DNA from: Escherichia phage vB_EcoBD_211
Direction: 5' to 3' (one strand)
DNA: 52,807 nt
Sequence record: PV893055.1
In this document: positions 49,914 to 50,722 of the stretch, piece after piece
How positions within the stretch are numbered: the first letter of the stretch is position 1
Layout of the letters: each line of letters opens with the position of its first letter
Position numbers and translations under genes: made by a program
The notes under the pieces: generated by a model
Seen by the model: the letters and a program-made list of their open reading frames with translations, nothing else
Database searches by the model: none
What the model was told of the DNA's origin: nothing

Positions 49914-50137
49914 AAGTAGGAGACCGTGAGGCCGTTTGATGATTCACATTAATGATAGCGCGTGGAGGAGAGAAAGTACACCACTTTTTAGTGAGTGTCT
50001 ACACAATTTCCGAAAAATATAAAAAAATTTTAGAGGGGCTTCACTTATTATTGTGTTAAGCAAAAGGTTAGCTCCTGTTGTATCAATCTGATGATGATTG
50101 GTCCTGATAAGGAGAAAATACAGAAAAAAATAAAAAA

Positions 50138-50190
50138 TTCCGCTGGCTCCTGGCGGATAGCACCCCTGCGAAATTACCCCCCGCCGCACC
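50138..50190. repeat. imperfect ~53-bp direct repeat, copy A
   Basis: Shares CG.GGCTCC...GCACCCCT...CCCCTGCCG.ACC blocks with 50314..50366; preceded by an A-rich tract. Confidence 0.6.
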
Positions 50191-50313
50191 TATTTCAATT
50201 GAAATGATTACTCTGGTAACTATTATGATTGGTACAATTACCATGTGAACTACTTCGGCCGTTATAGCACAAAGCGTCTATAATTCAGATTGAAATTATA
50301 TTTTTAGAAATAA

Positions 50314-50366
50314 TTTCGCCGGCTCCTTTAAGTGGCACCCCTATGTGATTATAACCCCTGCCGACC
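50314..50366. repeat. imperfect ~53-bp direct repeat, copy B
   Basis: Aligns with 50138..50190. Confidence 0.6.
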
Positions 50367-50477
50367 ATTTTGGATTGAGTAATTACATGCGAAACTATAT
50401 CAATTGCATACGAGAACCACTATCAATCGCAAGTGATTATCATTTCTAAAAACTTGCATAAACTTGCAATTCTTTTA

Positions 50478-50506
50478 TGTACAACATTGATTGACTGGCC
50501 TATAAT
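50478..50506 (+). promoter_or_regulatory. sigma70-like promoter candidate (TGTACA-N17-TATAAT)
   Basis: Perfect -10 TATAAT at 50501..50506 with a weak -35; oriented toward the early gene at 50723. Confidence 0.3.
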
Positions 50507-50722
50507 TATTACATCAAGACGAATGATGAATGTGTCAAGCGTCTTGTCTGGCGCGCGTCGTCAAGATGCGCAAATAATAACTTTACCTGGTCGAATAGTA
50601 CCAGACCGCTCTTTAACAATTTGGTAACATGTTTCTTGTTGATAGTAACACTAGTAATAGTTTCAACCAGTGACTATTGGTAACAGTAGTCACGCCTGGA
50701 AACTAATACAAAGGTAACTATT

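Follow-up and report, generated by a model that had tools for sequence, protein, structure and literature searches.

The DNA that we have analyzed is the record of Escherichia phage vB_EcoBD_211 (PV893055.1, 52,807 nucleotides, called the window here). Our subject is a gene-free stretch between a leftward operon and the rightward early genes, which contains two direct repeats of about 53 bp. This stretch probably contains the boundary of a long terminal repeat, likely with packaging and cleavage signals, together with ordinary early promoters. The first of the two direct repeats (copy 1) most likely coincides with a physical end of the genome, at 50144/50145 (a slash within a sequence or a pair of coordinates marks a cut). 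The repeats are best read as a genome-end and packaging site, not as duplicated promoters. Homology to three relatives shows where the predicted boundary should lie; it also shows a core shared by both ends, fixed spacings, the promoter positions and a hairpin in the early leader.

The position of this end, which we call T-R, comes from the three relatives whose termini have been mapped or deposited: fHy-Eco03, vB_SalM_Sz and AEV23. Phage fHy-Eco03 has direct terminal repeats of 3,699 bp, detected by PhageTerm and confirmed with restriction digests (Viruses 2021, PMC8145870). In its record (MW602648) the matching DNA, 1..3699, is annotated as 'left terminal repeat region', and the last base of the repeat aligns to position 50145 of the window. 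The record of vB_SalM_Sz (57,020 bp) has an exact repeat of 4,263 bp at both ends, which terminates at the base homologous to T-R. Its flank, …AAAAAATTCCGCT/GGCTCCTGGC…, is nearly identical to the window, where copy 1 reads …AAAAAATTCCGCT/GGCTCC…. A repeat of 3,915 bp has been reported for Klebsiella phage AEV23, also by PhageTerm (PMC12918118): the distance between the two homologous sites in this phage, 49979..53893, equals the published length. In S144, restriction mapping places a physical end in the same gap, and a long terminal repeat was proposed. Unique ends without permutation are thus documented for fHy-Eco03, AEV23 and S144. The record of LPSEYT opens 7 nt before the cut.

The other predicted limit of the terminal repeat is 1905. 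At their left ends, Sz and fHy-Eco03 align with the minus strand of the window at 1906/1905 (…GGATGAAAAAAATTTACGCT/GGCGAAAAATAATAAAAAACCGG), a site which we call T-L. The same /GGCG core after an A-rich tract is found in BP63, swi3, SD350, yarpen, ZCSE2, AEV23, SOI901 and SE1_KM: it is present in every lineage examined, while KE25 and SE4 are not covered at this end. In several relatives the core is a perfect palindrome, CGCC/GGCG, with the cut in the middle. Inside the repeat AEV23 and ZCSE2 have the same sequence, outside it they are not related, and the break falls exactly at the T-L cut. Beyond this cut, the AEV23 record (OR810919, 53894-55637) bears no relation to ZCSE2 and carries an IS5-family transposase; this DNA looks like a chimeric assembly join at a physical genome end.

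An A-tract followed by a GCY/GGC core is present at both termini in all the lineages examined. T-R and T-L face each other: at both sites the GGC side lies inside the repeat and the A-tract outside. When the 14-mer at T-R is used as the sole query and up to 2 mismatches are allowed, the window gives a single match, T-L, in register. We have also scanned about 105,000 positions with a position matrix made from ten terminus sites of other lineages, none of them from the window's own group (mean score -25.8, standard deviation 8.4). T-R has the highest score (22.6 bits), followed by T-L (14.4 bits). The third place corresponds to a terminus-like module at 50034/50035 (14.1 bits), called module 0 here, which lies 110 bp outside the terminal repeat; the fourth is the same module shifted by one base (50033/50034), and the fifth is the second direct repeat (copy 2), at 50320/50321 (10.8 bits). 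A pattern derived post hoc from three sites of the window was circular, and has been superseded by the single-site query and the cross-lineage matrix. When IMG/VR was scanned with a conserved pattern of 19 bases, only two known isolates were found, and no more distant relatives.

The first 127 bases of the window (1-127) are an exact duplicate of the last ones (52681-52807), so the window represents a unit genome of 52,680 bp whose assembly was closed into a circle. For the same reason, the terminal repeat continues at 128 and not at 1. Its predicted length is 4,441 bp, which is 7.8% of a virion genome of 57.1 kb, a size similar to that of Sz and fHy-Eco03 (57.0 kb). From these homologies we therefore predict a linear virion DNA of about 57.1 kb, whose exact direct terminal repeat measures about 4.44 kb. 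The repeat carries about 15 genes. All the small, low-GC early genes sit inside it, and therefore these genes and their promoter would be present at both ends of the DNA. Table 1 collects the features of the region.

Table 1. Features of the window that are discussed in the text (genome ends and terminal repeat are predicted)
Feature	Position	Strand	Remarks
Promoter TTTACA-N17-TACAAT	1831..1859	-	just inside T-L; drives nuclease gene 1345-1776 (-)
Predicted genome end T-L	1903..1925	-	GGATGAAAAAAATTTACGCT/GGCG; cut between 1906 and 1905
TerL	45329-46777		terminase large subunit
First gene of leftward operon	49416..49901	-	161 aa from ATG 49901; phrog_1365 (function unknown)
Leftward promoter P_L	49952..49980	-	TGTACT-N17-TATCAT; both hexamers in blocks invariant in 14 genomes
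Terminus-like module 0	50015..50042	+	AAATATAAAAAAATTTTAGA/GGGGCTTC; conserved block; matrix rank 3; repeat family D3
A-tract	50124..50137	+	AAAAAAATAAAAAA; directly outside predicted end; conserved in 14/14 genomes
Repeat copy 1	50132..50224, core 50138-50190	+	cut site at 5' edge; GGCTCC, GCACCCCT and CCCCCCGCCGCACC blocks
Predicted genome end T-R	50144..50145	+	...TTCCGCT/GGCTCC...; terminal repeat starts at 50145
Predicted direct terminal repeat, first part	50145..52807	.	continues at 128-1905
Repeat copy 2	50308..50399, core 50314-50366	+	matrix rank 5
Most conserved non-coding block	50393..50477	+	fixed distances from copy 2 and promoter; repeat family D1
Rightward early promoter P_R	50478..50506	+	TGTACA-N17-TATAAT; 333 bp from predicted genome end
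Leader RNA hairpin	50656..50722	+	outer stem AATAGT (50656-50661) with ACTATT (50717-50722), directly before AUG
First early gene	50723..51025	+	100 aa; inside terminal repeat; no family match

The two direct repeats were first noticed in a sequence-only reading of the window, made from the letters without database searches. They are real, and longer than stated there: a gapped local alignment covers about 93 bp (50132-50224 with 50308-50399) with a score of 34, while shuffled sequences give 16.0 +/- 2.2 and none of 500 reaches 34. The shared GC-rich blocks are equally borne out. In the whole window, GCACCCCT and CGCYGGCTCCT are each found only at both repeats; the GC blocks of copy 1 include GCACCCCT and CCCCCCGCCG. 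Each repeat was also said to follow an A-rich tract. This is true for copy 1, which has a true A-tract, but the DNA before copy 2 is AT-rich and not A-rich.

Copy 2 has a pseudo-cut site, GCC/GGC, at 50320/50321, 176 bp inside the terminal repeat. We have aligned 14 genomes, which represent about five lineages, over this region, and in all of them the distance from the cut to the equivalent point of copy 2 is 175-177 bp. In fHy-Eco03 this interval is held by compensating indels (+1, -3, +1, +1). The bases after the cut change jointly in both copies in several lineages: GGCTCC in copy 1 is found with GGCTCC in copy 2, GGGGCT with GGGGAA, and GGCGCT with GGCGCC. These joint changes hint at a shared reader; they also follow phylogeny. 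The 53-bp repeats are probably protein-binding sites.

Several other ideas about this sequence have been discarded. A hairpin formed by CCGCTGG and CTGGCGG at the cut is not kept in Sz (by inspection). GCCGGC alone is not a specific signal (9 matches, 6.7 expected), nor is GTCTAYA a local binding motif (16 matches, 12.8 expected genome-wide).

The phage has a clear class of promoters, T[GT]TAC[AT]-N17-TA[CT]NAT, with 11 matches (0.36 expected; none of 100 shuffles reaches 11), all of them co-oriented with the local genes. They are found at positions 512, 1831, 28487, 33491, 36357, 41815, 43731, 47104, 48809, 49952 and 50478. The last two, P_L and P_R, are in the gene-free stretch, and both are outside the two repeats. 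In the 14 genomes, the -35 hexamer of P_R is invariant and its -10 hexamer is TATAAT, TATTAT or CATAAT. The promoter at 1831 has an annotated counterpart, homologous in place, in the record of BP63.

Distances are also conserved between copy 2 and P_R. In the 14 genomes, copy 2 is followed after 72-73 bp by the ACTATATCAAT block, and the distance from this block to the TGTACA hexamer is 85 bp in every case. From the hexamer to the start codon, on the other hand, the distance is variable (245-274 bp). The non-coding block between copy 2 and P_R contains two copies of ACTAT(A/C)TCAAT(T/C)GCA with a 23-bp spacing and two copies of ACTTGCA with an 11-bp spacing, which are probably operator or activator sites. 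Identity to S144, fHy-Eco03 and SOI901 is 78-84% for 50393-50506 and 90-96% for 50400-50449, compared with 53-79% for the flanking genes.

These data bear on the view of the sequence-only reading, which saw in this stretch a regulatory hub with repeated sites or paralogous promoters. Divergent promoters do exist, as that view implied, but the repeats themselves are not promoters: no promoter of the phage's class and no good sigma-70 match is found in either 53-bp repeat. A sigma-54 promoter at TGGCAC in copy 2 was rejected by inspection: there is no fitting -12 element, and copy 1 reads AGCAC at that place. The repeats might still be operators for the divergent operons, to which a phage or host regulator could bind, and the constant spacing of copy 2 relative to the conserved block and the -35 hexamer would agree with such a role. 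Nevertheless, copy 1 lies at or across the physical end, and in the virion DNA it would be split from the leftward operon. We consider it unlikely that the repeats are paralogous promoters or transcription-factor operators.

A second explanation is a DNA-entry signal similar to that of T5. T5 has its injection stop signal in a 1.2-kb untranslated, repeat-rich region which lies across the inner end of the terminal repeat; this region is better conserved than many ORFs (open reading frames) of the terminal repeat, and the first-step-transfer segment is 7.9% of the genome. A DnaA-box array within inverted repeats has been proposed as the stop signal in the Davison preprint. By analogy, the terminal repeat of vB_EcoBD_211 would be a first-step-transfer segment, and the array of repeats at its inner boundary would, until the early proteins have been produced, halt injection or bind a protein which protects the end. 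The untranslated, repeat-rich region of 821 bp also straddles the boundary, its core is better conserved than the flanking genes, the small low-GC early genes are all in the repeat, and the fraction of 7.8% is very similar, a match which may be a coincidence. On the other hand, we have not seen homology to T5 elements, although no search aimed at T5 homology was made. The DnaA boxes proposed for T5 are absent: TTWTNCACA has no match in 49902-50722, and its 7 matches genome-wide (6.3 expected) show no enrichment. The publications that we have found on this group of phages report no two-step injection. This explanation also seems improbable to us, but it deserves to be borne in mind.

A replication origin, with the A-tract as unwinding element and the direct repeats as iterons, is a poor candidate. 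AT-rich tracts do adjoin the direct repeats, and the short repeats at 50393-50477 resemble iterons, but there are two long copies only, one of them cut at the genome end, and no replication-initiator gene is adjacent. A better candidate is an (ATT)n tract near the primase gene, just outside T-L. This AT-rich, low-complexity tract (about 2000-2050, minus strand) lies between the primase gene, 2273-4807 (-), and T-L. Similar TATC/ATT tracts are found at the same place in SOI901 and SE1_KM; the tract is a possible unwinding element or origin. Finally, it is very improbable that the repeats are small RNA genes or terminators: their GC-rich blocks do stand in AT-rich surroundings, and each has T-rich sequence after it, but the repeats have no significant fold on either strand (z from -1.2 to +0.25), no tRNA, no Rfam match at gathering scores (at E<=1, only one chance match of 17 bits to a family whose cut-off is 167 bits) and no terminator-like site, and no consistent pairing is found on reading the alignment of 14 genomes, although no formal covariation test was made on the repeats.

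The reading that we prefer, a terminal-repeat boundary at copy 1, has several points against it. The boundary of vB_EcoBD_211 itself comes from homology to its relatives. The A-tract dominates the matrix, and AT-rich DNA generally scores well. T-L does not contain the GC blocks of the 53-bp repeat (GCACCCCT and CCCCTGCCG): its similarity is limited to the A-tract and the core, so we have rejected the idea that it is a full 53-bp repeat. Since T-L lacks them, the GC blocks should be dispensable for cutting as such. No other segment of the region is as poorly conserved as copy 1, whose identity across genera is 46-69%, compared with 62-78% for copy 2; and none of the three mapped relatives has a terminus at copy 2. 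The protein which would read the repeats is putative, and the ORF of 96 amino acids upstream of TerL, described below, has no annotated family.

In the mechanism that we propose, the terminase (TerL and a putative small partner) would recognize the A-tract and the GCY/GGC core at both boundaries and cut there. Copy 2, 176 bp inside, and module 0, 110 bp outside, would be phased accessory sites which assemble or position the cutting complex, in the same way as the R-sites of lambda cosB or the pacL and pacR of SPP1 beside their cut sites. Since the concatemer junction presumably holds one copy of the repeat, the repeat would have to be duplicated during processing. In T7, the terminal repeat is duplicated during the processing of concatemers. 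Cuts or nicks at two sites which face inward would be compatible with a nick-and-extend scheme.

Two genes may be considered in this context. An ORF of 96 amino acids, 46781-47071 (-), is directly upstream of TerL and has a class promoter at 47104-47132. It matches no known family except phrog_38712, of unknown function; from its position, it is a candidate for the small terminase subunit. A PDDEXK_15/RusA-like nuclease gene, 1345-1776 (-), is found inside the terminal repeat and adjoins T-L. Its homologue in fHy-Eco03 is noted in the record as virion-associated by liquid chromatography and tandem mass spectrometry (LC-MS/MS). This nuclease is a candidate for concatemer or end processing.

It is also conceivable, but we would not expect it, that the modules at 50035, 50145 and 50321, rigidly spaced from the early promoter, form a nucleoprotein device with two jobs at the repeat boundary, packaging and entry. 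In packaging, it would set both ends of the genome by way of the shared GCY/GGC core; in infection, it would serve as a T5-like checkpoint for entry or protect the end, and the repeat, with 7.8% of the genome and about 15 small early genes, would be the first-step-transfer segment of a 57-kb myophage.

The early leader contains a different element. The 14-mer GGTAACTATTATGA has exact copies in the window at 50215 and 50713 only, as the sequence-only reading had pointed out, and a near copy, GGTAAC-ATTATGA, is found on the minus strand where the leftward gene starts. The copy at 50713 is explained as the 3' arm of a conserved RNA hairpin, and not as a repeated binding site. The hairpin includes most of the 14-mer, and the 3' side of its outer stem, ACTATT, is the spacer that separates the Shine-Dalgarno sequence from the AUG. 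The copy at 50215 is part of the tail of copy 1; a mini-ORF of 7 codons which was described after it, at 50225, is not conserved, and its ATG is absent in other lineages. Compared with shuffled sequences, folding gives z = -5.2 for the leader (50507-50730) and z = -5.8 around the hairpin (50640-50723). The consensus hairpin from ten relatives has 20 pairs, with 98.5% of the positions paired and compensatory changes in 6 pairs. None of 500 shuffles reaches the observed number of cells paired, of cells changed on both sides, or the covariation score, and one of 500 reaches the number of pairs changed on both sides. There is almost no covariation when the partner is slid by 1-3 columns. Two positions are U-G in most sequences: the hairpin is best read as RNA, because these pairs work only on the plus strand. 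It matches no Rfam family (50656-50722).

Other short sequences are found in the same leader. A short hairpin at 50585-50622 (CTGGT..ACCAG, or GACACC..GGTGTC in other lineages) is followed by a T-rich run and then by an invariant GCTCTTTAACAAT; attenuation or RNA processing may take place here. GGTAAC appears four times on the plus strand (50215, 50623, 50679 and 50713) in the 578 bp from the genome end to the first early gene, where 0.21 are expected from its density in the genome, an excess partly explained by the leader hairpin.

The motif RATTGAAAT does recur, as claimed, with 5 matches (1.1 expected; 1 of 100 shuffles), but the copy given at 52624 matches only from TTGAAAT onward. Two of the matches are the halves of a single 14-bp palindrome, ATTTCAATTGAAAT (50192-50205). 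The site at 52624 reads TTTTGAAAT and has TTGAAATTATTCACAA in common with 51724. Two perfect hairpins, at 51700-51757 (GATGGCACT..AGTGCCATC) and 52594-52657 (ATGAACTATC..GATAGTTCAT), each lie upstream of an early gene; after each of them come TTGAAATTATTCACAA and a ribosome-binding region which is similar in both cases. A 16-mer common to both sites contains a consensus DnaA box, TTATTCACA.

The stretch between the divergent genes is non-coding, as had been proposed: it has no conserved ORF, and its indels in 14 relatives are not multiples of three. The leftward gene had been thought to start at 49913, but GTG 49913 is an in-frame upstream alternative, and the ATG at 49901 (start context GGTAACATTATGA) is likelier, according to the annotation of relatives. 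With this start, the gap is 49902-50722, 821 bp. The protein of this gene, 49416-49901 (-), has a HEGIH (HExxH) motif, and its homologue in the S144 record is named 'putative Ku protein'; phrog_1365 is the only match, and no Pfam family was matched.

Comparison with related genomes, suggested as a check of the sequence-only reading, finds the stretch conserved in about 60 phage records: in a sequence similarity search, 60 records match the 861 bp around it. Identity is 94-97% with SPLA2, ciri, CF2, UPF_BP2 and BP63, 85-89% with swi3, Sz, triss and others, and about 73% with the Loughboroughvirus phages ZCSE2, S144 and AEV23. KE25, Erwinia phage SOI901, SE1_KM and fHy-Eco03 give partial matches. 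Phage vB_EcoBD_211 is a Rosemountvirus-like myophage.

Most of the approximately 60 deposited genomes of Rosemountvirus, Loughboroughvirus and their relatives are collapsed records of 52-54 kb, opened at an arbitrary point, in which the repeat of about 4 kb does not appear. The core at the cut sites allows both true ends to be predicted from the sequence alone. Many phages of this group have been proposed for the biocontrol of Salmonella or E. coli, and correct ends are needed for rebooting or engineering them. Little is understood of how phages whose terminal repeats are long and exact define and duplicate their ends: a short core common to both boundaries and a conserved internal paralogue at a fixed spacing provide a small, easily mutated substrate to study terminase recognition.

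Several known systems may be compared with this region. Repeat Region 3 of T5 is also a large untranslated region which straddles the inner boundary of a long repeat with pre-early genes, and it contains direct repeats and palindromes with fixed spacings. However, we have found no evidence of sequence relatedness, there is no DnaA-box array in vB_EcoBD_211, and it has two or three modules where T5 has dozens of repeats. In lambda cos (cosN and the R-sites of cosB) and SPP1 pac (pacL, pacC and pacR) the cut site is flanked by repeated elements, with bent or A-tract DNA and a fixed geometry; by analogy, copy 2 and module 0 might act in this manner. Nevertheless, lambda has cohesive ends and SPP1 uses headful packaging, and neither makes long exact terminal repeats. 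The ends of T7 and T3 are fixed, their direct repeat is exact, and strong early promoters of the host type lie a few hundred bp inside one end, reading inward. Ends and repeat are predicted to be of the same kind in vB_EcoBD_211, where P_R is 333 bp from the end. Unlike this phage, T7 has a non-coding repeat of 160 bp, instead of about 4.4 kb with about 15 genes, and its own RNA polymerase, while none has been reported for this group.

The closest systems are the relatives themselves. Long terminal repeats are already known in this group: they have been reported for fHy-Eco03 (PMC8145870) and AEV23 (PMC12918118) and proposed for S144. The publications that we have found on the group give repeat lengths only, and describe no shared core, inward-facing arrangement or internal paralogue. 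In fHy-Eco03 and AEV23 the genome architecture is the same as in vB_EcoBD_211, the boundaries of the repeat are at homologous bases, and the small early genes and the PDDEXK/RusA-like nuclease are also inside the repeat. The lengths of the repeat, 3,699 bp in fHy-Eco03, 3,915 in AEV23, 4,263 in Sz and a predicted 4,441 bp in vB_EcoBD_211, differ because their gene content is different.

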